Sequence record: MZ560701
DNA: 64,000 nt
Source of the DNA: Escherichia phage vB_EcoM_TU01
Direction: 5' to 3' (one strand)
Position numbers and translations under genes: made by a program
In this document: positions 8,408 through 63,707 of the stretch, one piece after another
How the letters are laid out: the number at the start of each line of letters is the position of its first letter
Position numbering within the stretch: position 1 is the stretch's first letter
Notes under the pieces: model-generated
Database searches by the model: none
What the model saw: only the letters and a program-made list of their open reading frames with translations
Told to the model about the DNA's origin: nothing

Positions 8408-8622
8408 TGTTATATGACCCAAGCGGNNNTTNTGAAGATGGTGTGATTGTTCTGGAGCCTGAGCATCCAGTTGGTGATGTATATCGCNCNGTTGAAGTAT
8501 GCGAATGTAATTTCGTTGAAGGTAATACTGGCGGAATTTCCATTGAGCAAGATGATGATGTTATTTACCTGGATGCAAGCCAAGTAGAAGCTCTTTATAG
8601 CATTTTAAAACACAATCGGTAG
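8407..8622 (+). CDS. hypothetical protein (MLYDPS... family)
   Basis: Paralogue of 8151-8315. Confidence 0.4.
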   Translation: MLYDPSXXXEDGVIVLEPEHPVGDVYRXVEVCECNFVEGNTGGISIEQDDDVIYLDASQVEALYSILKHNR

Positions 8623-12849: not shown

Positions 12850-13377
12850 ATGAACGCTAAAGATATTTTCAACCTGGTAAATTATAACGACGGTAAATTT
12901 AAATCTGAAGCACAAAGCAAGTTCTTTAATGACGTTGCTTATGGTAATGAGATTACCGTGGACGGAGGTCAGATTTTCAAATCTCGCTGGAATTGGATTG
13001 CTATCATCGATTCAGTTGGAATTGTAGAAGTCTACAAAAACACTAACAAAAAACGTACATTATTCTGGTCTCGTGAAACTAACGAGCAGTACAAAAAGGA
13101 TAAAGCATCTCGTTTATCCAAAGTAACCCAGGAAGATATCGAGTTTATCAAGAAAGATATCGAGATGTACGAAAATTTAATCGCTGAAGACCAGGCAGTA
13201 CTCGATAAGTTTGATGAAATTAAAGCTTCTCGTGAAATCCCTGACTTCATGAAAGAAACAGTAAACGAACGATACGCTCTCACTTCAGAACGTATTGCAA
13301 ACTATACAAAACAGAAAGCAGAACGTATTAGTACTCTTCGGAAATTTGAAGAACGTTTAAAGACGGTTCACGCATAA
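12850..13377 (+). CDS. hypothetical protein
   Basis: ORF track; own promoter. Confidence 0.5.
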   Translation: MNAKDIFNLVNYNDGKFKSEAQSKFFNDVAYGNEITVDGGQIFKSRWNWIAIIDSVGIVEVYKNTNKKRTLFWSRETNEQYKKDKASRLSKVTQEDIEFIKKDIEMYENLIAEDQAVLDKFDEIKASREIPDFMKETVNERYALTSERIANYTKQKAERISTLRKFEERLKTVHA

Positions 13378-13378
13378 A

Positions 13379-13404
13379 CGCTTTACCCAAGGACGGGTTA
13401 TAAT
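13379..13404 (+). promoter_or_regulatory. middle-promoter-like (MotA-box-like CGCTTTA + TATAAT 13 nt downstream)
   Basis: TATAAT 13399-13404. Confidence 0.4.
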
Positions 13405-13439
13405 GGTTTTGAGTTCCAATTCAATCTGAGGAAATAGTT

Positions 13440-14435
13440 ATGAGCATTACATCTGATGCGGTAAAACATGAAATTAACGGTTTATGTGCTTCACAGATTA
13501 AAGTGTGGTTTAAAGACCATAATGATCGCAGAGCACTTAATTATGAACAAATTGCTATCCAAGTTCATCAATTACTGACTAGTAAATTTGATTTTCATAT
13601 GCCGTCTGAAATCTATACTAATCTGCCGCGAGCGCTTATTAAAGCGTGTAAAGGTTACGGAAAATCAATGGCTGATGGAATCTTCAGCGCGCTGAATAAA
13701 CTTAACGTTCTGTCGATGATTAACTCTAACAACATTCTGCGTAATCTAGGACGTACTGATTTGTTCGGTCGTGAACAGTGTAAAATGCCTTTGAAATGGA
13801 TTGTTGCTCATCTTAACGAGAACCAAACACGTTTTATGGCCGTATCAGCACGCTTACAAATGGGCCTAGATCGTCAGATGAACTTTAAAACTCATCCACG
13901 TTATTCAGGTTCAACAGACTTTTATAAATGTGAGCTTCAAAAGGTTGCAGGTAAAACTGTCTTAGTAGTTCGTGTAACGTTTGAAGGACGACGTCAAGGA
14001 TATTTTGACCTAATCGGCTCTGGTCTTAAACATTGTGGATTTATTGACGAAGTTGATATCAAGCGAGACGGCATTGGATACCGTATTGGATATGTTTGTA
14101 CTCTTAAAGAAGAGATTTCAGGACCAGCACCAGGACTAAAAGACGTTAGATATAAAGACGAGCTCGTTGAAGAAATAAAAGAAGTTGAATATGATATCAA
14201 CCAAGAAGATGCTCTTAAAGACCTTATTGATGAACTAAACCAAGACGTTATTCCGGTTCAGAAATTTGAATCAAAACATGCTGAGCAAATCAAATACTTT
14301 GAAGCTTTGATTAACGAACTTAATGTAACTATTCAACAGACTGACGATGAAATCTCACGATTAGCAGGCTTAAACGGTAAAAATAAAACAGAACGAGCTA
14401 ATCTTATTCAAGTAGTAAAACTTCTTAAGGAATGA
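13440..14435 (+). CDS. hypothetical protein with C-terminal coiled coil
   Basis: C-terminal heptad-rich EQIKYFEALINELNVTIQQTDDEISRLAG. Confidence 0.5.
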   Translation: MSITSDAVKHEINGLCASQIKVWFKDHNDRRALNYEQIAIQVHQLLTSKFDFHMPSEIYTNLPRALIKACKGYGKSMADGIFSALNKLNVLSMINSNNILRNLGRTDLFGREQCKMPLKWIVAHLNENQTRFMAVSARLQMGLDRQMNFKTHPRYSGSTDFYKCELQKVAGKTVLVVRVTFEGRRQGYFDLIGSGLKHCGFIDEVDIKRDGIGYRIGYVCTLKEEISGPAPGLKDVRYKDELVEEIKEVEYDINQEDALKDLIDELNQDVIPVQKFESKHAEQIKYFEALINELNVTIQQTDDEISRLAGLNGKNKTERANLIQVVKLLKE

Positions 14436-23693: not shown

Positions 23694-23933
23694 ATGGCCC
23701 AAGAATTAGANNNNNNNNNNNNNNNNNNNNNNNNNNNNNNNNNNNNNNNNNNNNNNNNNNNNNNNNNNNNNTATGACATTTTAACAGATGCTATTACTGT
23801 TAGTTGTGGTGGAAANNNNNNNNNNNNNNNNNNNACTGAAAACAAATACCCAATCTATAAAGGCATCTTTGATATGGGTGTTGATATTAGNNNNNNNNNN
23901 NNNNNNNNNNNNNNNNNNNNNNNNNNNAAATAA
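23694..23933 (+). CDS. hypothetical protein, mostly N-masked
   Basis: ORF spans three N runs; only fragments readable. Confidence 0.25.
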   Translation: MAQELXXXXXXXXXXXXXXXXXXXXXYDILTDAITVSCGGXXXXXXXTENKYPIYKGIFDMGVDIXXXXXXXXXXXXXK

Positions 23934-33080: not shown

Positions 33081-35792
33081 ATGAAAGAATTTTACTTAAC
33101 GGTTGAACAGATTGGTGATTCAATTTTTGAACGTTACATCGATTCTAATGGCCGTGAACGTACTCGTGAAGTAGAATATAAACCATCACTGTTTGCTCAT
33201 TGTCCAGAAAGTCAGGCTACGAAATATTTCGATATCTACGGTAAGCCGTGTACTCGTAAGTTGTTCGCTAATATGCGTGATGCCTCCCAATGGATTAAAC
33301 GCATGGAAGATATCGGACTTGAAGCACTTGGCATGGACGATTTCAAATTGGCGTATTTGTCTGACACTTATAACTATGAAATCAAATACGACCATACAAA
33401 AATTCGTGTGGCTAACTTCGACATCGAAGTAACATCTCCGGACGGGTTCCCTGAGCCGTCACAAGCAAAACATCCGATTGATGCTATCACCCATTATGAC
33501 TCAATTGACGACAGGTTCTACGTATTTGATCTATTGAATTCTCCATATGGTAATGTAGAAGAATGGTCTATCGAAATCGCTGCTAAGCTTCAAGAACAAG
33601 GCGGTGATGAAGTTCCATCCGAAATTATCGATAAAATCATTTATATGCCGTTCGATAACGAAAAAGAATTGTTGATGGAATATCTCAACTTCTGGCAACA
33701 GAAAACTCCTGTCATTTTGACTGGATGGAACGTTGAGTCATTTGATATTCCATATGTGTATAACCGAATCAAGAATATTTTTGGCGAATCTACTGCGAAA
33801 CGTTTATCACCACATCGTAAAACTCGTGTTAAAGTTATCGAAAACATGTATGGTTCTCGTGAAATCATTACATTGTTCGGTATCTCTGTTCTTGATTACA
33901 TTGACCTTTACAAAAAATTCTCTTTTACCAATCAACCGTCGTATTCTCTGGATTACATTTCAGAATTTGAATTGAACGTTGGTAAACTGAAATATGACGG
34001 CCCTATTTCTAAGCTTCGTGAAAGCAATCACCAACGATACATTTCTTATAACATTATCGACGTGTATCGTGTATTGCAAATTGATGGTAAACGTCAGTTC
34101 ATTAACTTGAGCTTGGACATGGGTTATTATGCTAAGATACAGATTCAATCTGTGTTTAGCCCAATTAAAACATGGGATGCTATTATTTTTAATAGCCTTA
34201 AAGAGCAGAACAAGGTGATTCCACAAGGTCGTTCTCACCCGGTTCAACCTTATCCTGGCGCTTTTGTTAAGGAACCTATTCCAAATCGATACAAATATGT
34301 GATGAGCTTCGACCTCACATCTCTGTATCCAAGTATTATTCGCCAAGTGAATATTAGCCCAGAAACAATAGCAGGAACGTTTAAAGTAGCTCCATTGCAT
34401 GATTATATTAACGCTGTTGCTGAACGTCCTTCTGATGTGTACAGTTGTTCTCCTAACGGCATGATGTATTATAAAGACCGTGACGGTGTTGTTCCAACTG
34501 AAATCACTAAGGTCTTTAATCAACGTAAAGAACATAAAGGTTANATGCTTGCAGCTCAACGTAATGGTGAAATAATTAAAGAGGCATTGCATAATCCTAA
34601 TCTTTCTGTTGACGAACCATTAGATGTTGATTATCGTTTCGACTTCAGTGATGAGATTAAAGAAAAGATTAAAAAGTTGTCTGCTAAATCTCTTAATGAA
34701 ATGTTGTTTAGAGCTCAACGTACTGAAGTTGCAGGTATGACTGCACAGATTAACCGTAAATTGCTTATCAACTCNCTTTATGGTGCACTTGGAAACGTNT
34801 GGTTCCGTTATTANGATTTGCGTAATGCTACTGCAATCACAACATTCGGGCAAATGGCTTTACAGTGGATTGAACGTAAAGTTAATGAATATCTGAATGA
34901 AGTTTGTGGCACAGAAGGTGAAGCTTTCGTTCTTTATGGTGATACAGACTCTATTTACGTATCTGCNGATAAAATTATCGATAAGGTTGGTGAATCTAAA
35001 TTCCGTGATACCAACCATTGGGTAGACTTCTTAGATAAGTTTGCACGTGAACGTATGGAACCAGCTATTGATAGAGGTTTCCGTGAAATGTGTGAATATA
35101 TGAACAATAAACAACACTTAATGTTCATGGACCGAGAAGCTATCGCTGGTCCTCCGCTCGGTTCTAAAGGTATTGGTGGATTCTGGACTGGTAAGAAACG
35201 TTATGCATTAAACGTGTGGGATATGGAAGGTACTCGTTACGCTGAACCTAAGCTTAAAATCATGGGTCTCGAGACGCAGAAATCTTCGACTCCTAAAGCA
35301 GTACAGAAAGCTCTTAAAGAATGTATTCGTCGTATGCTTCAAGAAGGTGAAGAATCATTACAAGAATATTTTAAAGAGTTTGAAAAAGAATTCCGTCAAT
35401 TGAATTATATTAGCATCGCGTCGGTATCTTCTGCGAATAACATTGCTAAATATGATGTAGGTGGATTCCCTGGTCCCAAATGTCCGTTCCATATTCGTGG
35501 AATTCTGACGTATAACCGGGCTATCAAAGGTAATATCGATGCACCGCAAGTTGTAGAAGGTGAAAAAGTATATGTTCTGCCTTTACGTGAAGGAAACCCA
35601 TTCGGTGATAAATGTATCGCATGGCCTTCTGGTACTGAAATCACAGATTTAATTAAAGACGACGTACTTCATTGGATGGACTACACTGTTCTCCTTGAGA
35701 AGACATTTATTAAACCACTTGAAGGATTCACATCAGCAGCGAAACTCGATTACGAGAAGAAAGCATCTCTGTTCGATATGTTCGATTTTTGA
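33081..35792 (+). CDS. 43: DNA polymerase gp43 (family B), RB69-type
   Basis: 903-aa ORF; exo motifs FDIEV, YNIIDV; pol motifs DLTSLYPSI, KLLINSLYGALGN, YGDTDS; N-terminus MKEFYLTVEQIGDSIFERYID matches RB69 gp43 as recalled. Confidence 0.98.
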   Translation: MKEFYLTVEQIGDSIFERYIDSNGRERTREVEYKPSLFAHCPESQATKYFDIYGKPCTRKLFANMRDASQWIKRMEDIGLEALGMDDFKLAYLSDTYNYEIKYDHTKIRVANFDIEVTSPDGFPEPSQAKHPIDAITHYDSIDDRFYVFDLLNSPYGNVEEWSIEIAAKLQEQGGDEVPSEIIDKIIYMPFDNEKELLMEYLNFWQQKTPVILTGWNVESFDIPYVYNRIKNIFGESTAKRLSPHRKTRVKVIENMYGSREIITLFGISVLDYIDLYKKFSFTNQPSYSLDYISEFELNVGKLKYDGPISKLRESNHQRYISYNIIDVYRVLQIDGKRQFINLSLDMGYYAKIQIQSVFSPIKTWDAIIFNSLKEQNKVIPQGRSHPVQPYPGAFVKEPIPNRYKYVMSFDLTSLYPSIIRQVNISPETIAGTFKVAPLHDYINAVAERPSDVYSCSPNGMMYYKDRDGVVPTEITKVFNQRKEHKGXMLAAQRNGEIIKEALHNPNLSVDEPLDVDYRFDFSDEIKEKIKKLSAKSLNEMLFRAQRTEVAGMTAQINRKLLINXLYGALGNXWFRYXDLRNATAITTFGQMALQWIERKVNEYLNEVCGTEGEAFVLYGDTDSIYVSXDKIIDKVGESKFRDTNHWVDFLDKFARERMEPAIDRGFREMCEYMNNKQHLMFMDREAIAGPPLGSKGIGGFWTGKKRYALNVWDMEGTRYAEPKLKIMGLETQKSSTPKAVQKALKECIRRMLQEGEESLQEYFKEFEKEFRQLNYISIASVSSANNIAKYDVGGFPGPKCPFHIRGILTYNRAIKGNIDAPQVVEGEKVYVLPLREGNPFGDKCIAWPSGTEITDLIKDDVLHWMDYTVLLEKTFIKPLEGFTSAAKLDYEKKASLFDMFDF

Positions 35793-35832: not shown

Positions 35833-36468
35833 ATGAAAACTACTCCTATTACTATCGCTATTGACGCAATCATAAAACAAGCTTCTTCTTTGGCCGCTAT
35901 GGCCAAAGTAATTAGTCAAAACCCTGCTCGTTATAATGCTATTCTAGAAACTCTTCGACGCCCAGGACTTAGNAATTANGAAAGCCGAGTAATTATTACA
36001 GGTGTTGGTAAGAATGCTAATATTGCAACTAAAGCTTCTGAGACATTTGCTTCACTCGGTATCCCGAGTATGTACTTGAACACCGGGCATTATTCTCACG
36101 GTGATGCAGGATTCATTGCGCCTAATGATGTGTTGATTCATATTAGTCGTTCTGGTAAAACTGAAGAAATGATAGGCGTTGCTAAGCATCTTAAAATGAT
36201 TCGTCCGAACGTCAAACAGATTCTGTTGCATTGTAACCCAGACATTCCACAAGAAAATGAAGCCCTTTTTGATTACTCTTTCTGTACAGGCATCGCAGTA
36301 GAGGTTGATGAGAATTCTCTGGCTCCGACTATGTCCACTACATTGTTGTTAGCGCTTATCGATACTTTTGCTATCAACCTTTCGTCTGAGCGTGGATTTA
36401 CCTCTAATGACTTCCTTAAGTTCCACCCTGGTGGTGCACTAGGTGCCATGTTACGAGGCGAACAATGA
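35833..36468 (+). CDS. SIS-domain sugar-phosphate isomerase (KpsF/GutQ/KdsD-like, no CBS domains)
   Basis: VIITGVGKNANIATKASETFASLGIPSMYLNTGHYSHGDAGFIAPNDVLIHISRSGKTEEM is a canonical SIS domain. Confidence 0.8.
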   Translation: MKTTPITIAIDAIIKQASSLAAMAKVISQNPARYNAILETLRRPGLXNXESRVIITGVGKNANIATKASETFASLGIPSMYLNTGHYSHGDAGFIAPNDVLIHISRSGKTEEMIGVAKHLKMIRPNVKQILLHCNPDIPQENEALFDYSFCTGIAVEVDENSLAPTMSTTLLLALIDTFAINLSSERGFTSNDFLKFHPGGALGAMLRGEQ

Positions 36469-36608
36469 AAGCAATAACAATAGGACTTTTACTATTGATG
36501 CTTGTCATGACTATCTACTGGAGCTTAACGGCTCCAGTAATGATTCCAACACTTGTAATTGGATGGATTATGATTGGACTACAAGCAAAGTATGAATGCT
36601 TTAACTAG
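36465..36608 (+). CDS. 47-aa hydrophobic micropeptide (candidate)
   Basis: MKAITIGLLLLMLVMTIYWSLTAPVMIPTLVIGWIMIGLQ; ATGA overlap with SIS gene. Confidence 0.3.
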   Translation: MKAITIGLLLLMLVMTIYWSLTAPVMIPTLVIGWIMIGLQAKYECFN

Positions 36609-36649
36609 AATAGTGTACAATACTCCTACTTACCAATGAGGACNNCAAC

Positions 36650-38335
36650 ATGAAAAAAGCTGTTATTCTTGGTGCTGGACTGGCAACTCGTTTGTATCCA
36701 ATAACGCATCATATTCCTAAGGTGCTTGTTAACTATAAACAAGACACTATTCTGAGCAATTTGTATACAATTTATTCTGACCTTGGCGCAGATGAAATTA
36801 TTGTAGTAGTTCATTCAAAATTTGCTGAAACTGTTCGAGCTTATTGTGAGCAAGAAGGGTTCAATGTGACTATTCGTACAGTTGATGAAGCGTATGGTTC
36901 TGCTTATGCTCTTGCTAAATTACACAAAGATTTAGACGGCCATAATGTAATTGTTAACTGGTGTGATATTATTCCTGATTTTGGTTCATGGTCTTGGAAT
37001 GTTAACGCAATCTATGTTAAGGGTGATGAATGTCGATATAATTTCGACGGTGAAAATATCACTAACGTAGGTTCAACAGGTGGTAATGTTGTAGGAATTT
37101 ATCAGTTCAAAGACTGGGAATTCTATATGGGTTCTACTGATGAGGAAATTCATGAATACTGCAAAGGACGTGATTTCGTAGAATTCCTTTACGGCAGCGC
37201 ATTCAATAAATCAGAGCTTATGAATCTAATTGATTTAGGTGATATGCCTAAACTTGAAAAAGCTCATGAAGTTCGTGAACTTAATCGTAGTTTTAATGCA
37301 GTTGAAATTGGTGAAGAAACTGTAACTAAATTCGCATTAACCGAACAGGGTCGAGCTCTTCAGAAAGATGAGATTTCATGGTATCTTAAAGTGAAATCAG
37401 ATTCAGTTCCTCAGTTAGTTTCTGTTAATGAAAATAACTTTGAAATGGAACGCATTAAAGGTAAGCCGGCATTTGAATATATTAAATCCAAATCGAGTCT
37501 TGCTCGTCCACAAATTGTTGATGCAATTTTAGATGCACTGAAATTCAGCACAGACACTTATTTTGTAAGTCCTGAAACTGTTCGTCGTGATTTCACTAAA
37601 GAATTCTATACGAAAGTTATTGATCGTTGTGAAAGTATTCAACCATTGATTGATTCATTTGGTAAAATCACACATGTGAACTACACTAAGATTGGACGTC
37701 TGAAGCCAATGCTGAAACAAGCTTTAGAACACCTTATTCGTTATCATAACCGTTCTCAGGGACAGTACTCTGTTATTCATGGCGACCCGAACTTCAGTAA
37801 TACTATGATTACTGATAACGGCGAAGTCAAGTTTATCGACCCTCGTGGATATTTTGGTGAAACCAAGATTTACGGGCCAAAATTGTACGATGAAGCTAAA
37901 GTGCTTTATGCTGTTTCAGGTTATGATGAATTCAACGCTAATCCGACCTGGGGACAGTTTACTATTGACGAAACAACTTGTAATGTGACTATTAACATCA
38001 ATCCATTAATTTACAAATATGGAAAGCTGAGTTCGTTTAACGAGTATCATCATTTGGCCGTAGCAATTATCTGGATTGCATTAGGTGGTTATTTCAAGAA
38101 TAATCCACTTAAAGCGGTAGCCGCATATTATAAAGGTATGGAACTTCTGACTAAGCAATTACGTAACATGGGCCGTGTACTTCAAGACGGCTCTATTAGT
38201 TATGACGTAGCAGAACCTGTAACGGCTACTCTGATTACAAAAAATCCTGGTAAATGGGTACTAACTGATAAAGAAACTGGTGTTTCCTATCGTCCAATCG
38301 GTGGCGATATCACTCATCAATGGGAACGAATCTAA
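36650..38335 (+). CDS. bifunctional sugar-1-phosphate nucleotidyltransferase (N-term, LicC/RmlA-like) + APH/choline-kinase-fold kinase (C-term)
   Basis: N-term MKKAVILGAGLATRLYPIT...KVLV (G-x-G-T-R-L-x-P); C-term SVIHGDPNFSNTMITDNGEVKFIDPRGYFG (H-G-D-x4-N and I-D-x-R). Confidence 0.8.
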   Translation: MKKAVILGAGLATRLYPITHHIPKVLVNYKQDTILSNLYTIYSDLGADEIIVVVHSKFAETVRAYCEQEGFNVTIRTVDEAYGSAYALAKLHKDLDGHNVIVNWCDIIPDFGSWSWNVNAIYVKGDECRYNFDGENITNVGSTGGNVVGIYQFKDWEFYMGSTDEEIHEYCKGRDFVEFLYGSAFNKSELMNLIDLGDMPKLEKAHEVRELNRSFNAVEIGEETVTKFALTEQGRALQKDEISWYLKVKSDSVPQLVSVNENNFEMERIKGKPAFEYIKSKSSLARPQIVDAILDALKFSTDTYFVSPETVRRDFTKEFYTKVIDRCESIQPLIDSFGKITHVNYTKIGRLKPMLKQALEHLIRYHNRSQGQYSVIHGDPNFSNTMITDNGEVKFIDPRGYFGETKIYGPKLYDEAKVLYAVSGYDEFNANPTWGQFTIDETTCNVTININPLIYKYGKLSSFNEYHHLAVAIIWIALGGYFKNNPLKAVAAYYKGMELLTKQLRNMGRVLQDGSISYDVAEPVTATLITKNPGKWVLTDKETGVSYRPIGGDITHQWERI

Positions 38336-38721
38336 TGCACCGTGTAGAAAACATGCTTAATCTTTGTTTTGATGTCGATGATTGTATAACAGAGTGGAAT
38401 AACAATCGTGATTACGTGAACTTCAAGCCGGACGTCGAAATGGTGAATGCCATTAATGCCCTGTATGATGCAGGGCACACAATAACGCTTTACACTGCTC
38501 GCGGTATGAAGTCAGTAGGTCCTGGTCGTATAGCAATTGACATTCTCCCAAGTCTTATTCAGAACTTGGCAAACATTGGCTTGAAGTACCATAATTTGCT
38601 AACACATAAACCAGTATATGATTGGATTATCGACGACAAAGCTATGCGTCCTGACGAATTCAAAGCTCTTATGAATAAAGGCGAATTCGAAACATTTAAA
38701 TCATATAAACCGAATCTATAA
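38335..38721 (+). CDS. small HAD-superfamily phosphatase (KdsC-like size)
   Basis: LCFDVDDCIT (motif I DxDx[TV]), ITLYTARG (motif II), YDWIIDDK (motif IV); start 38335 or 38353. Confidence 0.7.
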   Translation: MHRVENMLNLCFDVDDCITEWNNNRDYVNFKPDVEMVNAINALYDAGHTITLYTARGMKSVGPGRIAIDILPSLIQNLANIGLKYHNLLTHKPVYDWIIDDKAMRPDEFKALMNKGEFETFKSYKPNL

Positions 38722-38775
38722 TAATTTAAGTAAGACCTGCAAAAACCATCGCATCAATTAACGCGAGATGCAAAA

Positions 38776-39936
38776 ATGAATACTTTTAAAATCGGAACGA
38801 ATTTTGATTTAGCTCTTCTTGATAAAATCGTAGAGCTCAATAAAACTTATCCTAATAGCTTGATAAACGAAGTATATGGCTCTACAAGAGAAATGGCTTT
38901 TGTAGCAGCCAGACCTGATTTTAGGCTTCCTGACGTTGACAAAAAGATGTTAGAAGATTACGTTAAACGTTGTAACGAATTAGGTATTTGCTTTAACTAT
39001 ACACTCAACACGATAAATCCTGGTTCAAAAAGAGAACTAGTTGAGTGGAAGAAGAAAGCTATTCAGGACTATGTTCAGTATCTTTGGTCAATAGGCGTAT
39101 GGCGTATTACTATCGCTAACCCTGTTGTTATGGAAATTGTTCGTGAAGTCAATAAAGACATTGAGATTGAAGTTTCAACAATTTTACATGTCGATGCTGT
39201 AACTCAAATCAAATACTTACATGACCAGTATAATATCAAAAAGGTCTGCTGTGGAATTCATAAGAACCGTTCAGTTTCTTTCCTGAAGCGTGCAGCAGAG
39301 TTTTGCAATAAGAACAATATAATATTTGAAGTTCTTGTAAATGAGTTCTGTTCTAATGCTGGTAAAGGGTATACAACACATTGTAGCTATCGTGACTCTT
39401 GCTATATTTTCCATAGTACTGATGTTACAGCTGATGATGCTAAATCCTTAAATGGATATCCTATGCAGCACTGTATTAAAGCTCGTGATACAGACCCATT
39501 TAACTGGTTGAGAACTCGTTTTGTTCGTCCACAAGATTTGAAACTTTATAATGATATTGGTATCACTCAATTTAAAGTTTCGGGACGTACAGGTAGCACC
39601 GACTACATTTTGAAAGTTCTTGAAGCTTATGCTTCTGAAAAGTTTGAAGGTAATTTGTTGGAATTGTGGAAGCCTTTAGAGACCATTTTCACTCTTGAAA
39701 ATGAGACCGAGTTTTCACATACGGTAAATATTGAAACCTCTTTGTTAGACGGCTTTTTAGAAAAAAGGTGGTTCAGACATCCGGATTTCGATTGTGCTAA
39801 TGAAATCTGCGGGACGACGTGTACATATTGTGAAAGATATTATAAACGTCAGTTATCTAAAAATGGGTTATCAGAAAATTCTATATCTATTATTGATATA
39901 ACTAACTCTGACGACGCTTTGAGGTACCCAGAATGA
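38776..39936 (+). CDS. Cys-rich enzyme of unknown function (possible U32-like TIM barrel; C-terminal CGTTCTYC Cx3Cx2C cluster)
   Basis: 386 aa; FEVLVNEFCSNAGKGYTTHCSYRDSC and CANEICGTTCTYC; family assignment tentative. Confidence 0.5.
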   Translation: MNTFKIGTNFDLALLDKIVELNKTYPNSLINEVYGSTREMAFVAARPDFRLPDVDKKMLEDYVKRCNELGICFNYTLNTINPGSKRELVEWKKKAIQDYVQYLWSIGVWRITIANPVVMEIVREVNKDIEIEVSTILHVDAVTQIKYLHDQYNIKKVCCGIHKNRSVSFLKRAAEFCNKNNIIFEVLVNEFCSNAGKGYTTHCSYRDSCYIFHSTDVTADDAKSLNGYPMQHCIKARDTDPFNWLRTRFVRPQDLKLYNDIGITQFKVSGRTGSTDYILKVLEAYASEKFEGNLLELWKPLETIFTLENETEFSHTVNIETSLLDGFLEKRWFRHPDFDCANEICGTTCTYCERYYKRQLSKNGLSENSISIIDITNSDDALRYPE

Positions 39937-40109
39937 TTTCTAGAAAAACTTTTAACCACCAACTTAATGAAGAGATTTTGACTATAAAAATTAACAGCAA
40001 CGAACAAATTCTTAAAAAGGCCCTTATGGGCCTGTTTGAAACTAAAGCGGCTAAAGCGATTAAAGAAACCTGTTCAACTAGAATACTATGCCGACGCATT
40101 CCTTCATAG
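39933..40109 (+). CDS. small hypothetical protein (58 aa)
   Basis: ATGA overlap. Confidence 0.3.
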   Translation: MISRKTFNHQLNEEILTIKINSNEQILKKALMGLFETKAAKAIKETCSTRILCRRIPS

Positions 40110-40172
40110 TGTCCTTGGAAGTATTGATGCCGAAGCTCTACGTTATATCAACATCGCTAAGAAATTCAAATA

Positions 40173-40196
40173 AGCTTTATGAATTGAGTATATAAT
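40173..40196 (+). promoter_or_regulatory. middle-promoter-like element (MotA-box-like AGCTTTA, TATAAT 11 nt downstream) for gene 42
   Basis: AGCTTTA 40173-40179, TATAAT 40191-40196. Confidence 0.45.
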
Positions 40197-40215
40197 AAAC
40201 TGTATTGAGGTAAAC

Positions 40216-40932
40216 ATGGGAAAACATAACACAATGAAATATATTAAAGCCGCAGATTTTCAATCCGCATTTAAAGCTGTCAATCGTGAAATTTTAGAAA
40301 ACCCAGAATTCGTAACTGATTCTCGTATTGGACGTTGTAATGAAATTGGGTCTATGACAGTAGTTGTTGACACTCCATCATCATTCAAAATGACCGACCC
40401 ACGTATTAACCGCATCTCTTATGAATATGCCGAAGATTTCTGGAAATTTATGATTTCTGGCGGNACTGANGCAGAAGAAGCATTTAAGGCATATCCTAAT
40501 GTCGCTAAATTTATTTCTAAACCAAAATCAGACGCTTTGCCTGCGAACTTCAACACTTTCTATGGTCCTCGCATTGCGGCCCAATTACCAGCTCTTCTAA
40601 AAGAACTTAAAGAGAAGCCTAACTCTCGAAGAGTTGTGTTCCAAATTCTTGAAAGTTCTGATCAGGCTTTGCTTGATTCGGACGAAACGCTTGAATATCC
40701 ATGTACTGACTCAGTGACTTATTATATTCGTGATGGTAAGCTTTATACCCACTGTCATATGCGTTCCCAGAACTGTGCTGTTGTTATGCAGTTGGATTTT
40801 TATCTCCAAGGAAAATTACTTCATTATATCGCTAAAGAATGCGGTGTAGAAGTTGGTGATTATACTCATACCATGGTAAGTGCCCATGTGTTTGAACGTG
40901 ATTTTGATTATGTTAAAGGATTCCTTGACTAA
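40216..40932 (+). CDS. 42: dCMP hydroxymethylase (thymidylate-synthase fold)
   Basis: 238 aa; CTDSVTYYIRDGKLYTHCHMRSQNCAVVMQLDF parallels T4 gp42 catalytic-Cys region; between 43 and uvsX. Confidence 0.85.
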   Translation: MGKHNTMKYIKAADFQSAFKAVNREILENPEFVTDSRIGRCNEIGSMTVVVDTPSSFKMTDPRINRISYEYAEDFWKFMISGXTXAEEAFKAYPNVAKFISKPKSDALPANFNTFYGPRIAAQLPALLKELKEKPNSRRVVFQILESSDQALLDSDETLEYPCTDSVTYYIRDGKLYTHCHMRSQNCAVVMQLDFYLQGKLLHYIAKECGVEVGDYTHTMVSAHVFERDFDYVKGFLD

Positions 40933-41831
40933 TGGCTATTTTCCGCGTACCTATCTTGAGTATGCGGTCTTATGAAACCGGACAGTATGCTATCCTTAAG
41001 GATGGCAACTTCCAACTTCATTTGCACCGTGCTAATCCGGGTGATGTGATTACATATCCACGTAATGCATCTGATATTAAAGAATGTGAACGTCTTTTCC
41101 CAGAATTTAAGTTTGTTCCATTATGGTATAAAGATAACGCGTATAACACTCGTAAATATTTCTGGTCTGAAAATGAATTTGTGGTTGATTCATTAATTGC
41201 TTATTATGATTGTGATTTTCTAATCACAGATATCACTGGATATGACGGAGCTTTTGATGTAGAATTCAATTTCAATATCACTGCAGACCCTAATAAACCA
41301 CGTTTTTATATTGACGAATTCTTAAAAACCGACATGTTGTCGGTTAATCGTTCACTTCAAACTACTGTGTTGAATGAACGTCAAAAAGAAGTGCTGGTTA
41401 ACGCTGGTGCAGATGGTAATAAGATTATCGTAACCCAGAAAGTTATACGTCCTTCCATCATGCAGCGTCTTGTAGGTGATTTGGCTCCTATTCATCTAGA
41501 TGGTATTTTTCATCCATTTCGAATTAGTGACCCGTGCTATCGTTTTGAACAAGTGGTTGAATGTGCAATTCAATTAGGTCAACCGCTTTATGTAACCGAT
41601 CCAAATAATAGTTTCGATAGAAATAAGTATCCTGAAGAAGCGCTGATTCGAATTTTTAAACCAACTAAAACTGAGTACTATCAAATTCTTAAAGGACGGC
41701 CGAAGATTCAATATTTCGAAAATCCTGAAGAAGTATTCCATCCAGGTCTTGGCGAGTTCATCTACTTTAATGCTTTAATTTCTTCACCGTATAATATACC
41801 TAAATACGAAGATGTCGTAATCGAGGAATAA
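40932..41831 (+). CDS. hypothetical protein at the T4 beta-glucosyltransferase locus (no resemblance to T4 beta-gt)
   Basis: 299 aa; TAATG overlap with gene 42; no motif I could assign. Confidence 0.5.
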   Translation: MAIFRVPILSMRSYETGQYAILKDGNFQLHLHRANPGDVITYPRNASDIKECERLFPEFKFVPLWYKDNAYNTRKYFWSENEFVVDSLIAYYDCDFLITDITGYDGAFDVEFNFNITADPNKPRFYIDEFLKTDMLSVNRSLQTTVLNERQKEVLVNAGADGNKIIVTQKVIRPSIMQRLVGDLAPIHLDGIFHPFRISDPCYRFEQVVECAIQLGQPLYVTDPNNSFDRNKYPEEALIRIFKPTKTEYYQILKGRPKIQYFENPEEVFHPGLGEFIYFNALISSPYNIPKYEDVVIEE

Positions 41832-41832
41832 A

Positions 41833-42381
41833 ATGGCTAAAATTATTTTAGTAGATGGCCCGGATAATGCTGGTAAAACAACTTTCATTAATGATATAAT
41901 GGAAATTAGTGAAAGATATGTAAAGATTGATTTCCCTAAACGAACAGTTGATGGACGTTTCGATGTTAAGTCTCGAAATGAAGTTGGCTGTTTCGAAACG
42001 ATGTTGAATTATTTAGACCCTACTAAGATTTATCTGTTAGACCGTGGATATATTAGTAACTGGGTTTATGGACGTATTCGACAAGATGCGGACTCGGTTC
42101 TTGACGTTTATGAACAGGATTATGTTCGTCTTTGCCAAAACCATGATGTGTTCACAATTATTTTAACACGTAACGAAATGACTGAAAGTTTTGAAGACGA
42201 CCTTATTACTTTGTCTTCATTCGGTTTTAATACAGTCATTTCACATTTTGAAGAGTTTGCAATTCATAACAAAATCCAAACGTATCAATTACTTAATCAT
42301 GATGGTGCTAACAAAGTTATAGGATTTAATGCAAGCGAACGTAATTATTTGATTACAGAAATTATCAAATGGGCTCGTTAA
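41833..42381 (+). CDS. P-loop nucleoside/nucleotide-kinase-like protein
   Basis: MAKIILVDGPDNAGKTTFI (Walker A), LLDRGYISNWVYG (DR motif typical of dNK/dNMP kinases). Confidence 0.55.
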   Translation: MAKIILVDGPDNAGKTTFINDIMEISERYVKIDFPKRTVDGRFDVKSRNEVGCFETMLNYLDPTKIYLLDRGYISNWVYGRIRQDADSVLDVYEQDYVRLCQNHDVFTIILTRNEMTESFEDDLITLSSFGFNTVISHFEEFAIHNKIQTYQLLNHDGANKVIGFNASERNYLITEIIKWAR

Positions 42382-42402
42382 GAGCCTGTTTAAAGTTTTT
42401 AA

Positions 42403-62606: not shown

Positions 62607-63707
62607 ATGAAAGTTATGTTTATCCCATCTCGNGCAGTCCCATTTAATCCTGACCGTGTACAAGGTGGNCTTGAAGCAGTACATTTAAATGTGTTGAAAT
62701 ATCTTGTGTCCATCGGTGCTGATATTGATTATATCGGCTTTGATAATGACACGTTTGGTGACTGGAAAGTTAAACACCATCCTGTTGGTCATCTGACTAA
62801 ATTCAGTCTAGGTATGAGTTATACTATGGCTCGTAAGATTGTTGAACTAGCNGGCATCCATGAATACGATTTTGTTGTTACTATGGAACCGACTAAACTA
62901 ACCGTTCAGGCAATTAAAGACGCAGGTCTCTCTAAAGTTCATAAGAATTTTATGGCAACACCATTTGAACCGGTATCTCGTGGCATTGTTCAAATTTGGG
63001 ACCANACTATTCAAATTCATAAGAATGGTGGTAAGAGTTATGCTCCTACTAAAGCCTTCCGTGAATTTGAACGCAAATATTGTTATATGACTTCAGGTCT
63101 GACTGACAAAATTGATTATGATTATTGGCGAGCAAATCCGTTGTTTGAAGCCGAAGATTATCCGGTTATTTGTTTGANTGAGAAACCNGAAGTTCTTCCG
63201 GCNACTGATNTGATTATTAGTGCACAACGTTATGACACTAAAATGCGTCGTACTGATGTTGCTCTTGAAGCGATTAAAGCACTAGGCGAAAATGGTGTAG
63301 GATACTGTCCTAGTAAATGGGCACCACCAGCTAAATATCCTGTTATTATTGATGCTCCACACAGTGAAATCATGGAACGTCTTAAAACAGCTAAAGCACT
63401 TATTAATACGTGTCCTGACACAGGTACNGTAGAGAATAGTTCTATTGAAGCCATCTCTAAAGGTGTCCCTGTAATCCAGTTAGTTTTTAAGGATTATCCT
63501 CATGCGACATTCGAATACGACCCAGATACTGTGCGTGTAGAAATTGATTCCTCTACTCCTAAGAAAGAAGTAGTTGCGCTTTACACAAAAGCTGTATTAG
63601 AATTCACTGACACATACGAAGCTCGAGTTAAACGNGCTGAAGCAGTATGGAAGAAGTATAATCGAGATGCAGTTGTTGCGATGTGGGATAAAATCTTCAC
63701 AGCGTAA
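62607..63707 (+). CDS. GT-B-fold glycosyltransferase (GT4-like), candidate DNA sugar transferase
   Basis: N-terminal MKVMFIPS..PFNPDRVQGGLEAVHLNVLKYL and C-terminal ENSSIEAISKGVPVI resemble GT4 motifs; N-containing. Confidence 0.6.
   Translation: MKVMFIPSXAVPFNPDRVQGXLEAVHLNVLKYLVSIGADIDYIGFDNDTFGDWKVKHHPVGHLTKFSLGMSYTMARKIVELXGIHEYDFVVTMEPTKLTVQAIKDAGLSKVHKNFMATPFEPVSRGIVQIWDXTIQIHKNGGKSYAPTKAFREFERKYCYMTSGLTDKIDYDYWRANPLFEAEDYPVICLXEKXEVLPXTDXIISAQRYDTKMRRTDVALEAIKALGENGVGYCPSKWAPPAKYPVIIDAPHSEIMERLKTAKALINTCPDTGXVENSSIEAISKGVPVIQLVFKDYPHATFEYDPDTVRVEIDSSTPKKEVVALYTKAVLEFTDTYEARVKXAEAVWKKYNRDAVVAMWDKIFTA

Follow-up and report, generated by a model that had tools for sequence, protein, structure and literature searches.

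The window analysed here is a stretch of 64,000 nucleotides from Escherichia phage vB_EcoM_TU01 (MZ560701), an RB69-like Mosigvirus with approximately 98% nucleotide identity to RB69, and includes 322 ambiguous bases. Four open reading frames (ORFs), described as co-directional in the first-pass annotation, were confirmed between positions 35833 and 39936, all on the + strand: 35833-36468 (211 aa), 36650-38335 (561 aa), 38320-38721 (133 aa) and 38776-39936 (386 aa). The module is bounded on its 5' side by the gene of DNA polymerase gp43 (33081-35792, + strand; gene 43 in the RB69 annotation), considered here as context only, and on the other side by that of a thymidylate synthase (TS) homolog (40216-40932, + strand). 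Its G+C content is that of the flanks. Moreover, it shares synteny with RB69 ORF055c-050c, to which it is 97.8% identical in nucleotides, and the locus is 97.8-98.6% identical to RB69 and approximately 150 other Mosigviruses, all of which keep this gene order. A candidate terminator, a hairpin followed by a T-run detected by a consensus scan alone, lies at the 3' end of the cluster (42367-42391, + strand).

Genes for an activated arabinose

The first gene (35833-36468, + strand) encodes a single-domain SIS protein, a predicted arabinose-5-phosphate (Ara5P) isomerase orthologous to RB69 gp55 and containing two ambiguous residues. Profile searches matched it to Pfam SIS (7.8e-11) and to the NCBIfam families KpsF/GutQ (2e-32) and KdsD (5.9e-31), and its matches in the PDB are the Ara5P isomerases 3etn (1.4e-25) and 2xhz (2.4e-19); conversion of ribulose-5-phosphate into Ara5P is the role proposed for gp55-type proteins (PMC13326640). 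It is followed by a hydrophobic 47-aa ORF resembling RB69 gp54 (36465-36608, + strand), with copies 55-64% identical in LC53, Entb_45 and JS98 and the annotation 'transmembrane segment(s)' in LC53, which probably lies outside the pathway.

The 561-aa protein (36650-38335, + strand), an ortholog of RB69 gp52:53 and of the HY126 AfhE type, is encoded by one intact ORF, and its domains and orthology point to an N-terminal Araf-1-P uridylyltransferase fused to a C-terminal, APH-like Ara5P C1-kinase. Residues 3-99 match Pfam NTP_transferase (8.5e-10), and the sequence shows the signature GxGxRLxPxT...PK. The kinase domain yields sub-threshold Pfam matches only, while its relatives do pass Pfam APH. 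Structure prediction nevertheless bore out the kinase fold named in the first-pass annotation: the AF2 model of residues 225-561 (pLDDT 96.1) resembles APH and choline/ethanolamine kinases, which account for all its top Foldseek matches in the PDB, 3ham (APH(2'')-IIa) being the first. In addition, the motifs HGDxxxxN and IDPRG are invariant across 56 homologs of this domain. Both activities are reported for HY126 AfhE, as relayed in PMC13326640.

The third gene (38320-38721, + strand) encodes a small HAD-superfamily phosphatase orthologous to RB69 gp51 and of the AfhF type. Whereas SIS and NTP_transferase were recovered in Pfam, as the first-pass annotation anticipated, the Pfam search gave no match for this ORF, and its fold is recognized through NCBIfam TIGR01689 (2.8e-13) and through the PDB entries 1xpj (4.9e-10) and 9IQW (2.1e-87), a near-identical solved structure from which it differs at 1 of 129 aligned residues. 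Lee et al. obtained a FoldSeek match of gp51 to heptose bisphosphate phosphatase, and in their account of HY126 the AfhF-type enzyme removes the 5-phosphate of Araf-1,5-bisphosphate (PMC13326640). HAD, SIS, nucleotidyltransferase and kinase domains also occur fused in single proteins (Rosetta-stone fusions), which supports a shared pathway.

All enzyme activities are assigned to vB_EcoM_TU01 by orthology. On this basis, host ribulose-5-phosphate would be isomerized to Ara5P by the SIS enzyme and phosphorylated at C1 by the APH-like domain, yielding Araf-1,5-bisphosphate; the HAD phosphatase would then take off the 5-phosphate, and the nucleotidyltransferase domain would form UDP-Araf. The same succession, from Ara5P via Araf-1,5-bisphosphate and Araf-1-P to UDP-Araf, is that of the HY126 reconstitution as summarized in PMC13326640. 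That the kinase acts before the phosphatase goes back to He et al. 2026, as described by Lee et al. (PMC13326640). Phosphorylation of C1 while C5 is still blocked would keep the sugar in its furanose form.

The modified base and its glycosylation

The TS homolog (40216-40932, + strand) is orthologous to RB69 gp48, matches Pfam Thymidylat_synt (1.8e-15) and aligns over its full length with PDB 9IQC/9IR2 (5.3e-160), being near-identical to the solved 9IQC. RB69 gp48 was shown to have flavin- and O2-dependent 5-hydroxy-dCMP synthase activity, with the use of 18O2 (PMC13326640). The placement beside DNA polymerase given in the first-pass annotation holds, but the other neighbour, which it took for the dCMP hydroxymethylase of gene 42, is by this near-identity and by published work a 5-hydroxy-dCMP synthase (PMC13326640, PMC13390438). 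This enzyme would convert dCMP, and the 5-hydroxy-dCTP derived from its product would bring 5-hydroxycytosine into DNA. Immediately downstream, an intact glycosyltransferase of 299 aa (40932-41831, + strand), orthologous to RB69 gp46:47 and 60-68% identical to its orthologs in other genera, is the putative first DNA arabinosyltransferase (PMC13326640 Table 1). The second, an ortholog of RB69 ORF003c assigned its role after PMC13326640, is encoded 23 kb away from the cluster (62607-63707, + strand) and is 96% identical to RB69p003, all other differences being ambiguous residues. Both transferases would spend UDP-Araf on 5-hydroxycytosine. Finally, a thymidylate-kinase-like nucleotide kinase orthologous to RB69 gp45 (41833-42381, + strand), identified by a weak dTMP-kinase P-loop match and PMC13326640 Table 1, accompanies the cluster in every lineage examined.

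The first-pass annotation envisaged that the HAD enzyme frees arabinose from Ara5P, the kinase then acts at C1, and the resulting NDP-arabinose joins hydroxymethylcytosine (hmC) made by a gene-42 dCMP hydroxymethylase. An order with HAD acting on Ara5P and the kinase on free arabinose still appears in Table 1 of Lee et al. (PMC13326640), and arabinosyl-hmC was the original RB69 report (PMC6024577). However, NMR and MS place the sugar in an ether bond directly at C5, i.e., on 5-hydroxycytosine, in RB69, DLP3 and Mosigvirus NP (PMC13326640, PMC13390438), in accordance with 5-hydroxy-dCMP formation by gp48; the modified base is thus arabinosyl-5-hydroxycytosine. Furthermore, HY126 AfhE and AfhF are reported to act on Ara5P and Araf-1,5-bisphosphate, respectively, with no free pentose in the reconstitution as relayed in PMC13326640, and arabinose released as the free sugar would tend to close into a pyranose. 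Release of free arabinose for attachment to hmC is, therefore, very improbable.

Even less credence can be given to a cell-envelope or other non-DNA function, such as a boost to Kdo/LPS or capsule synthesis or a modification of the host surface. Such a function is evoked by the NCBIfam names KpsF/GutQ, 'capsule biosynthesis phosphatase' and GlmU and by GenBank annotations, but in every lineage the genes lie within the replication and nucleotide-metabolism region, beside the base hydroxylase, nucleotide kinase and DNA glycosyltransferases, and the virion DNA of RB69-like phages carries arabinose (PMC13326640, PMC13390438). The RB69 genome reportedly has neither alpha-gt nor beta-gt (PMC13326640).

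Judged by its sequence, the module is the published gene cluster by which RB69-like coliphages make UDP-arabinose for 5-hydroxycytosine in DNA. Two proposals of the first-pass annotation are consequently sustained: an NDP-pentose donor made for DNA rather than the envelope, in view of the published system and the multi-domain fusions, and an RB69-type arabinosylation system, in view of the approximately 98% identity, shared gene order and literature. Such a donor for DNA hypermodification is not new, since it is already known from Thomas 2018, Mahler 2025, He 2026 and Lee 2026. Taken as a whole, with its step order, base and transferases, the explanation of 35833-38721 as the phage's own supply of UDP-D-arabinofuranose is very likely to be correct.

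The U32 protein gp50

The fourth gene (38776-39936, + strand) encodes an ortholog of RB69 gp50, a Peptidase_U32-family protein for which both Pfam U32 membership and fold hold, and is the sole gene of the cluster still without explanation. Three of the four enzymes joined into one sugar module in the first-pass annotation have received roles there, but the U32 gene is outside the sugar route: it was not detected in Acinetobacter phages and Dhakaviruses whose sugar module is otherwise present. The nucleotidyltransferase-kinase (NT-kinase) is present in 57 Acinetobacter phage records, and no Acinetobacter phage occurs among the ten genera or the 60 rows listed for U32, seven further organism names (~12 records) standing outside that listing. 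Acinetobacter hosts are strict aerobes. A sugar role is also opposed by the DLP1 cluster, which has no U32, and by the related DLP3, whose DNA bears tri-arabinosylated 5hoC while no U32 is found in its cluster as tabulated (PMC13326640).

The U32 family includes RlhA and TrhP, prephenate-dependent, O2-independent enzymes that form ho5C in rRNA and ho5U in tRNA, respectively (PMC6599085; PMC13602947). In the alignment, Glu185 and Cys192 of gp50 correspond to E162 and C170, essential residues of TrhP (PMC6599085), and nine Cys residues are invariant across 97 gp50 homologs. However, the second essential Cys of TrhP and RlhA (CX6C) is replaced by Gly, with a Cys four residues beyond, so that the cluster ligands of gp50 depart from the canonical pattern, and profile comparison with UbiU and TrhP is weak past the N-terminal barrel.

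The genomic context points to prephenate. In 51 phage records of sister genera, an AroQ chorismate mutase (Pfam CM_2, 1.7e-11; PDB 1ybz, 7e-14) sits between U32 and the TS homolog; its invariant residues match what we take to be the active site of the E. coli enzyme, except for Asn in place of Asp48. No chorismate mutase was found in the vB_EcoM_TU01 window, where the slot, held by a chorismate mutase in most sister genera, is filled by a small gp49-like ORF (39933-40176, + strand) that, aligned with RB69, is broken by a 1-nt insertion and is intact in NHEP10; some genera hold both genes. gp49 was ruled out as a chorismate mutase, having no similarity to those of phages. The survey was extended to approximately 30 non-T4-like viral and metagenomic U32 loci (up to 10 kb on either side, several of them truncated), in which SIS and NT-kinase accompany U32 in 10, a gp46:47-like glycosyltransferase in 14, often immediately 5' of U32, and an adjoining DAHP synthase in six, of which four form a fusion with chorismate mutase. 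DnaE-type phages unrelated to the T4-likes combine U32 with the same arabinose genes and a DAHP-synthase/chorismate-mutase fusion. Across genera, U32 is 83-87% identical, compared with 69-80% for DNA polymerase and 43-72% for the NT-kinase.

We consider it somewhat probable that gp50 hydroxylates pyrimidines at C5 as an Fe-S enzyme that depends on prephenate and not on O2. Such an enzyme would supply a second, anaerobic path to 5-hydroxy-(d)cytosine in the gut. In vB_EcoM_TU01 its prephenate would be host-derived, since Mosigviruses are without the chorismate mutase of sister genera. A counter-example is provided by the E. coli Dhakaviruses (JS98), which have the TS homolog and the sugar genes without U32. 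A different job for U32 is possible but appreciably less probable. It could be a reductase, gp50 being labelled 'sugar or heterocycle reductase' by Lee et al. (PMC13326640 Table 1), or a tRNA/rRNA hydroxylase, as the characterized U32 pyrimidine hydroxylases have RNA substrates (PMC6599085; PMC13602947), or an accessory of the TS-type hydroxylase, and its non-canonical Cys pattern would suit such readings. On the other hand, U32 is set among nucleotide-metabolism, replication or arabinose/glycosyltransferase genes in the loci sampled, and its chorismate mutase and DAHP synthase partners indicate prephenate chemistry. T4-like phages encode tRNAs, which counts for an RNA substrate, but gp50 has none of the C-terminal extensions seen in RlhA and TrhP. 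As for an accessory function, the sampled flanks of the non-T4-like loci gave a single weak TS match (3e-5), so that in DnaE-type phages, with no clear TS homolog nearby, U32 cannot merely be a TS assistant.

Comparison with known systems

The closest system is the RB69 gp45-gp55/HY126 Afh cluster (PMC6024577; PMC13326640), whose genes are orthologous one by one at approximately 98% nucleotide identity. RB69 and vB_EcoM_TU01 share the order SIS, small ORF, NT-kinase, HAD, U32, gp49, TS homolog, glycosyltransferase and kinase, as well as an ORF003c-type glycosyltransferase apart from the cluster. The NT-kinase and glycosyltransferase are single intact ORFs in vB_EcoM_TU01 and split in the RB69 GenBank record because of sequencing errors (PMC13326640; PMC6024577), whereas gp49 is frameshifted in vB_EcoM_TU01, unlike in RB69.

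The putative hydroxylase gp50 has the Pfam U32 domain and TIM-barrel fold of RlhA (ho5C2501, 23S rRNA), TrhP (ho5U34, tRNA) and UbiU/UbiV (anaerobic ubiquinone synthesis), and keeps the Glu and first motif Cys of U32 hydroxylases along with many invariant Cys residues. C5 hydroxylation of a pyrimidine is the chemistry the phage requires, and the genomic link of gp50 homologs to prephenate supply recalls the prephenate dependence of RlhA and TrhP; the O2-dependent TS homolog beside gp50 would parallel TrhO beside TrhP. Nevertheless, identity is approximately 17-23%, and the second Cys of the motif has shifted position. gp50 also has an additional invariant motif in its C-terminal part, CX4CX3CX2C, but no RNA-binding C-terminal domains, and would presumably act on a deoxynucleotide or DNA instead of RNA.

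In the ADP-L-glycero-beta-D-manno-heptose pathway, the SIS isomerase GmhA, the HldE kinase, the HAD 1,7-bisphosphate 7-phosphatase GmhB and the HldE transferase act in succession. This four-step logic is that of the phage route, the isomerase and phosphatase folds match, and kinase and transferase are fused in both. However, a heptose destined for LPS is replaced by a pentose, a UDP carrier and DNA, and the phage kinase has an APH/choline-kinase fold and the domain order transferase-kinase, unlike HldE, whose kinase is of the ribokinase type.

Lastly, the T4 glucosyl-hmC system (gp42, alpha-gt, beta-gt and host UDP-glucose) follows the same strategy, in which a modified dCMP is the product of a TS-family enzyme and the base enters DNA during replication, to be glycosylated afterwards, and both loci occupy the neighbourhood between genes 43 and uvsX. 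The RB69-type system differs in its base (5-hydroxy instead of 5-hydroxymethyl), its hydroxylase cofactor (flavin and O2 instead of folate) and its GT-B glycosyltransferases, unrelated to those of T4 (PMC13326640). Moreover, whereas T4 uses a sugar donor of its host, the RB69-type donor is no metabolite of the host, so that the phage encodes its synthesis.

Gene organization of the modification cluster

The first-pass annotation had proposed four co-directional enzyme genes, and four enzyme-sized ORFs indeed lie on the + strand at exactly the coordinates it gave, encoding a SIS isomerase (ORF1, 35833-36468), a nucleotidyltransferase/kinase fusion (NT-kinase; ORF2, 36650-38335), a HAD phosphatase (ORF3, 38320-38721), and a Peptidase_U32 protein (ORF4, 38776-39936; U32 hereafter). 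The enzyme encoded by the fourth ORF had been left without a name. The cluster is bounded upstream by the DNA polymerase gene (33081-35792, + strand), and the four ORFs are followed downstream by a thymidylate synthase (TS) homolog (40216-40932, + strand). Over this stretch, RB69 and some 150 further Mosigvirus genomes show 97.8-98.6% identity, and the genes match RB69 ORF055c-ORF049c one to one. An origin as a foreign island was rejected, since the G+C content of the cluster equals that of its flanks.

Two smaller ORFs on the + strand complete the arrangement. A conserved 47-aa hydrophobic ORF resembling RB69 gp54 (36465-36608) separates the isomerase from the NT-kinase; the phages LC53 and Entb_45 have it as well, and in JS98, which has no isomerase, it adjoins imm. 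Between U32 and the TS homolog, a gp49-like ORF (39933-40176) is split by a frameshift due to a 1-nt insertion (AAAGAAACC in the window versus AAAGAACC in RB69), while gp49 is whole (79 aa) in RB69 and in NHEP10, the closest relative; this insertion may be a sequencing error. Ambiguous bases (n = 322) are spread through the whole window (e.g., 1718, 8427-8432, and 23711-23716) and introduce X residues into several proteins, including the DNA polymerase, the SIS isomerase, the TS homolog, and the gp3-like glycosyltransferase, which looks like the result of a low-quality or consensus assembly.

Downstream of the TS homolog, the + strand carries a gp46:47-type DNA arabinosyltransferase gene (40932-41831), orthologous across genera, and a thymidylate-kinase-like gene (41833-42381) that accompanies the cluster in T4-like phages. 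A consensus scan placed a terminator-like hairpin followed by a T-run exactly where the kinase gene ends (42367-42391, + strand), and found none as strong elsewhere on the + strand of 35833-42381, which is compatible with a single transcription unit across this interval. The promoter scan was uninformative, since sigma-70-like sites were fewer than in shuffled sequence. A second DNA arabinosyltransferase gene, of the ORF003c type and 96% identical to RB69p003, is located apart from the cluster at 62607-63707 (+ strand).

Sugar activation and the identity of the modified base

The central idea of the first-pass annotation, an activated-pentose donor for DNA hypermodification, is correct and was already published (PMC6024577, PMC13326640). 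Arabinose was found on RB69 DNA, and ORF055c and the fused ORF53_52c were proposed as UDP-arabinose genes by Thomas et al. 2018 (PMC6024577). The modification cluster was later delimited as RB69 gp45-gp55, and mono- and di-arabinosyl-5-hydroxycytosine were identified in RB69 DNA by MS and NMR (Lee et al. 2026, PMC13326640). LC-MS and NMR of virion DNA from RB69 and from another Mosigvirus, NP, show mono- and di-arabinosyl-5-hydroxy-dC in place of dC (PMC13326640, PMC13390438), and the latter source calls the earlier 5-hydroxymethylcytosine (hmC) assignment erroneous. The hmC base initially assumed for the window is therefore unsupported. As written, the pentose-activation module restates a known system, whose candidate genes were named in 2018 and whose chemistry was revised in 2025-2026 to arabinosyl-5-hydroxycytosine.

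All the folds named in the first-pass annotation (SIS, nucleotidyltransferase, kinase, and HAD) were recovered by Pfam, NCBIfam, and PDB searches, together with structure modelling and Foldseek for the C-terminal part of ORF2. ORF1 consists of one SIS domain and belongs to the arabinose-5-P isomerases of the KpsF/GutQ family (Pfam 7.8e-11; NCBIfam 2e-32), with PDB matches 3etn (1.4e-25) and 2xhz (2.4e-19). The N-terminus of ORF2 is a sugar-1-P nucleotidyltransferase domain (Pfam 8.5e-10) in which the GAGLATRLYPIT...PK signature is seen. Since all Pfam kinase matches of its C-terminal half were sub-threshold, residues 225-561 were modelled with 56 homologs (pLDDT 96.1), and the top Foldseek PDB matches of the model, headed by 3ham, are all aminoglycoside, choline, or ethanolamine kinases. 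Moreover, HGDxxxxN and IDPRG are invariant in this kinase half, and more distant relatives of ORF2 pass the Pfam APH threshold. For ORF3, which has no Pfam match, the NCBIfam search recovered TIGR01689 (2.8e-13), and the protein is all but identical to that of the solved structure 9IQW (2.1e-87). The window contains the isomerase, bifunctional kinase/nucleotidyltransferase, and HAD phosphatase of the RB69/HY126-type cluster, as well as both of its DNA arabinosyltransferases (gp46:47-type and ORF003c-type).

The order of the reactions reported for coliphage HY126 differs from the one first envisaged, in which the phosphatase acted before the kinase. According to the part of He et al. 2026 relayed in PMC13326640, AfhE of this phage, the counterpart of the NT-kinase, both phosphorylates arabinose-5-P, yielding Araf-1,5-bisphosphate, and forms UDP-Araf, and the HAD protein AfhF strips the 5-phosphate between these two steps; the phosphatase-first order is thus unsupported by what is relayed there. 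As cited in the same source, the UDP-arabinofuranose route has been reconstituted for a near-identical phage. The HAD and TS proteins of the window are near-identical to PDB entries 9IQW and 9IQC/9IR2/9IQU, respectively, which we infer to be HY126 proteins.

HAD, SIS, NTP_transferase, and kinase domains are joined in one polypeptide of 890-955 aa in relatives of ORF2 from metagenomic and eukaryotic sources, which supports a single shared pathway. These fusions include the ORF2 homologs P0204, P0208, P0209, P0211, P0212, and similar ones, one of them from a eukaryotic transcriptome set. Since the four-domain fusions extend to this eukaryotic member, a UDP-arabinose-type route probably exists outside phages.

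The TS homolog had been labelled as the gene 42 hydroxymethylase. This label is unsupported, since the protein, an ortholog of RB69 gp48 located next to the sugar genes, is of the 5-hydroxy-dCMP (5hodCMP) synthase type, as judged from its match to PDB 9IQC/9IR2 (5.3e-160 over residues 1-238) and from gp48 itself, which converts dCMP into 5-hydroxy-dCMP using O2 and flavin (PMC13326640). Lee et al. proposed D169N and N177D (ThyA numbering) as a signature of 5hodCMP synthases. The TS homolog reads HMRSQNCAVVMQLD, and setting its RS dyad on ThyA R166-S167 places N at position 169 and D at position 177, with an ambiguous register for D169N because MAFFT moves this stretch by two residues. The neighbouring thymidylate-kinase-like enzyme may act on a hydroxylated nucleotide; genes of the same family are also found close to U32 in unrelated DnaE-type phages (loci L010, L014, L016, and L045). 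The practical value of the pentose-module finding lies in correct annotation, as GenBank still labels genes of the cluster 'phosphoheptose isomerase', 'GlmU', 'peptidase', and 'dCMP hydroxymethylase'.

U32 as a candidate O2-independent hydroxylase

The residual interest of the locus is U32 and its possible connection with prephenate, a directly testable lead. U32 is separable from the sugar module: it is absent from the Acinetobacter phage DLP1 and the coliphage JS98, in which the NT-kinase, HAD, TS homolog, glycosyltransferase, and kinase are present. Lee et al. list no U32 for DLP3, a relative of DLP1 with tri-arabinosylated DNA, and the U32 ortholog RB69 gp50 is entered there only in a table, under the label 'sugar or heterocycle reductase', and is never discussed (PMC13326640). 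In the Serratia phage LC53, a putative homing endonuclease gene (L002 5352-5990), missing from the other genera, is inserted between HAD and U32, marking the junction of the two modules as a break point.

The U32 family includes RlhA (5-hydroxycytidine in 23S rRNA), TrhP (5-hydroxyuridine in tRNA), and UbiU/UbiV; RlhA and TrhP require prephenate but no O2, and TrhP parallels the O2-dependent TrhO (PMC6599085, PMC13602947). The Pfam Peptidase_U32 domain and the U32 TIM-barrel fold are present in the window protein, whose direct sequence search against solved structures gave no match at E<=1. The U32 motif of TrhP has an essential Glu (E162) and a Cys pair (C170 and C177); in the alignment, Glu185 of the window protein takes the place of E162, and Cys192 that of C170. 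Unlike the canonical CX6C arrangement, the second Cys is displaced, as the C177 position is occupied by Gly198 and an invariant Cys203 lies nearby; this ligand mapping is uncertain because the phage family profile matches E. coli UbiU and TrhP weakly and only in the N-terminal barrel. The subfamily comprises at least 268 proteins (37-58% identity), and nine Cys residues are invariant among 97 aligned sequences (158, 192, 203, 209, 233, and a C-terminal CX4CX3CX2C), a pattern compatible with one or two putative Fe-S clusters. Moreover, few proteins of the cluster are as conserved as U32, which is 83-87% identical across genera, compared with 69-80% for DNA polymerase and 43-72% for NT-kinase.

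Prephenate is the product of chorismate mutase. In Winkler-, Kanagawa-, Marfa-, and Tegunavirus-like phages and other genera, an AroQ chorismate mutase gene fills the slot between U32 and the TS homolog, immediately adjoining both, an association that recurs in 51 phage records of sister genera. The assignment is based on Pfam CM_2 (1.7e-11 and 2.4e-10) and PDB 1ybz (7e-14), and the invariant residues R8, R25, K36, N45, E49, S71, and Q75 presumably correspond to the active-site positions of the E. coli enzyme, with Asn in place of Asp48. No chorismate mutase was found in the window, and Mosigviruses, including this one, have lost it. The possibility that gp49 (39933-40176) is a diverged version was rejected by BLASTP (E=6.9) and hhalign (probability 0.1%), and is also countered by several genera that carry both genes side by side.

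Outside T4-like phages, about 30 U32 loci were compared over flanks of up to 10 kb per side, shorter in several, and most look like large DnaE-polymerase phages. Within the sampled flanks, one weak match (3e-5) was the only sign of a TS homolog. SIS and NT-kinase lie upstream of U32 in 10 of these loci, and a gp46:47-like glycosyltransferase is present in 14, often immediately upstream of U32. DAHP synthase adjoins U32 in six (in L013, TIGR01361 5e-64), and in four of the six it is fused to chorismate mutase, as in L045 (Pfam DAHP_synth_1 5.9e-24 and CM_2 2e-24), where the gene order is kinase, SIS, NT-kinase, DAHPS/CM, HAD, and U32. A gene of about 248 aa following U32 in some DnaE phages was considered as a hidden TS homolog and rejected, as its product resembles an epimerase in three loci and in L013 is a DAHP synthase.

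Some DnaE-type contigs carry a dCMP deaminase immediately upstream of U32 (L010 7447-8004, L014 7504-7929) and a UDG domain fused to the polymerase; in deaminase-bearing phages, the hydroxylated base may be uracil rather than cytosine. The metagenomic locus L011 encodes a second, divergent U32 paralog (13227-14360) beside radical-SAM/SPASM, deoxynucleoside kinase, NT5C nucleotidase, and nucleoside deoxyribosyltransferase-like genes, and a dockerin-bearing glycoside hydrolase nearby suggests an anaerobic, Clostridia-type host.

The listed and classifiable hosts of U32 phages (Enterobacterales and Shewanella) are all facultative anaerobes. Acinetobacter is a strict aerobe, and its phages contribute 57 records with NT-kinase; no Acinetobacter phage is among the ten genera or the 60 rows listed for U32, with seven further organism names (about 12 records) beyond that listing. 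It is an evenly balanced proposition, in our judgement, that U32, with chorismate mutase or DAHP synthase elsewhere, is a prephenate-dependent, O2-independent pyrimidine C5 hydroxylase of DNA precursors, either backing up the TS homolog or acting as the sole hydroxylase. Using prephenate as a co-substrate, U32 is predicted to hydroxylate pyrimidines at C5 in DNA precursors or in DNA. In enteric T4-like phages, it would provide an anaerobic back-up for the O2- and flavin-dependent TS-type 5-hydroxy-dCMP synthase, and in many DnaE-type phages, whose sampled flanks showed no TS homolog, the hydroxypyrimidines of glycosylated DNA may depend on U32 as the sole hydroxylase. The displaced second Cys, the weak homology to UbiU and TrhP beyond the N-terminal barrel, and the absence of U32 from the Dhakaviruses of E. 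coli, JS98 among them, weigh against this reading. A literature search, with He 2026 and Mahler 2025 outside its scope, turned up no work that connects phage DNA hydroxylation with U32, prephenate, or chorismate mutase; the U32 gene goes unmentioned in the Thanatos paper, and the phage Tn-seq preprint holds no essentiality data for it.

If correct, this would make U32 the first hydroxylase of its family with an assigned role in DNA modification, extending U32/prephenate hydroxylation chemistry to DNA, beyond RNA and quinones. An O2-independent cytosine hydroxylase would fill a gap, since the known hydroxylase needs O2 and the hosts live largely without it, and would account for the full replacement of cytosine by these phages in the anoxic gut. 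Furthermore, glycosylated hydroxypyrimidine DNA would be expected in a much wider set of uncultured phages, with implications for how phages evade restriction and CRISPR and for which phages are chosen for therapy.

Relationship to known sugar and DNA modification systems

The T4 glucosyl-hmC system, which combines a folate-dependent dCMP hydroxymethylase (gp42) with alpha- and beta-glucosyltransferases, is not matched in the window, and the genome-wide absence of alpha/beta-gt has been reported for RB69 (PMC13326640). In contrast to T4, the slot beside the TS homolog of the window holds a glycosyltransferase unrelated to the alpha/beta-glucosyltransferases. In its overall logic, the sugar route of the window parallels the synthesis of ADP-heptose by GmhA/HldE/GmhB.
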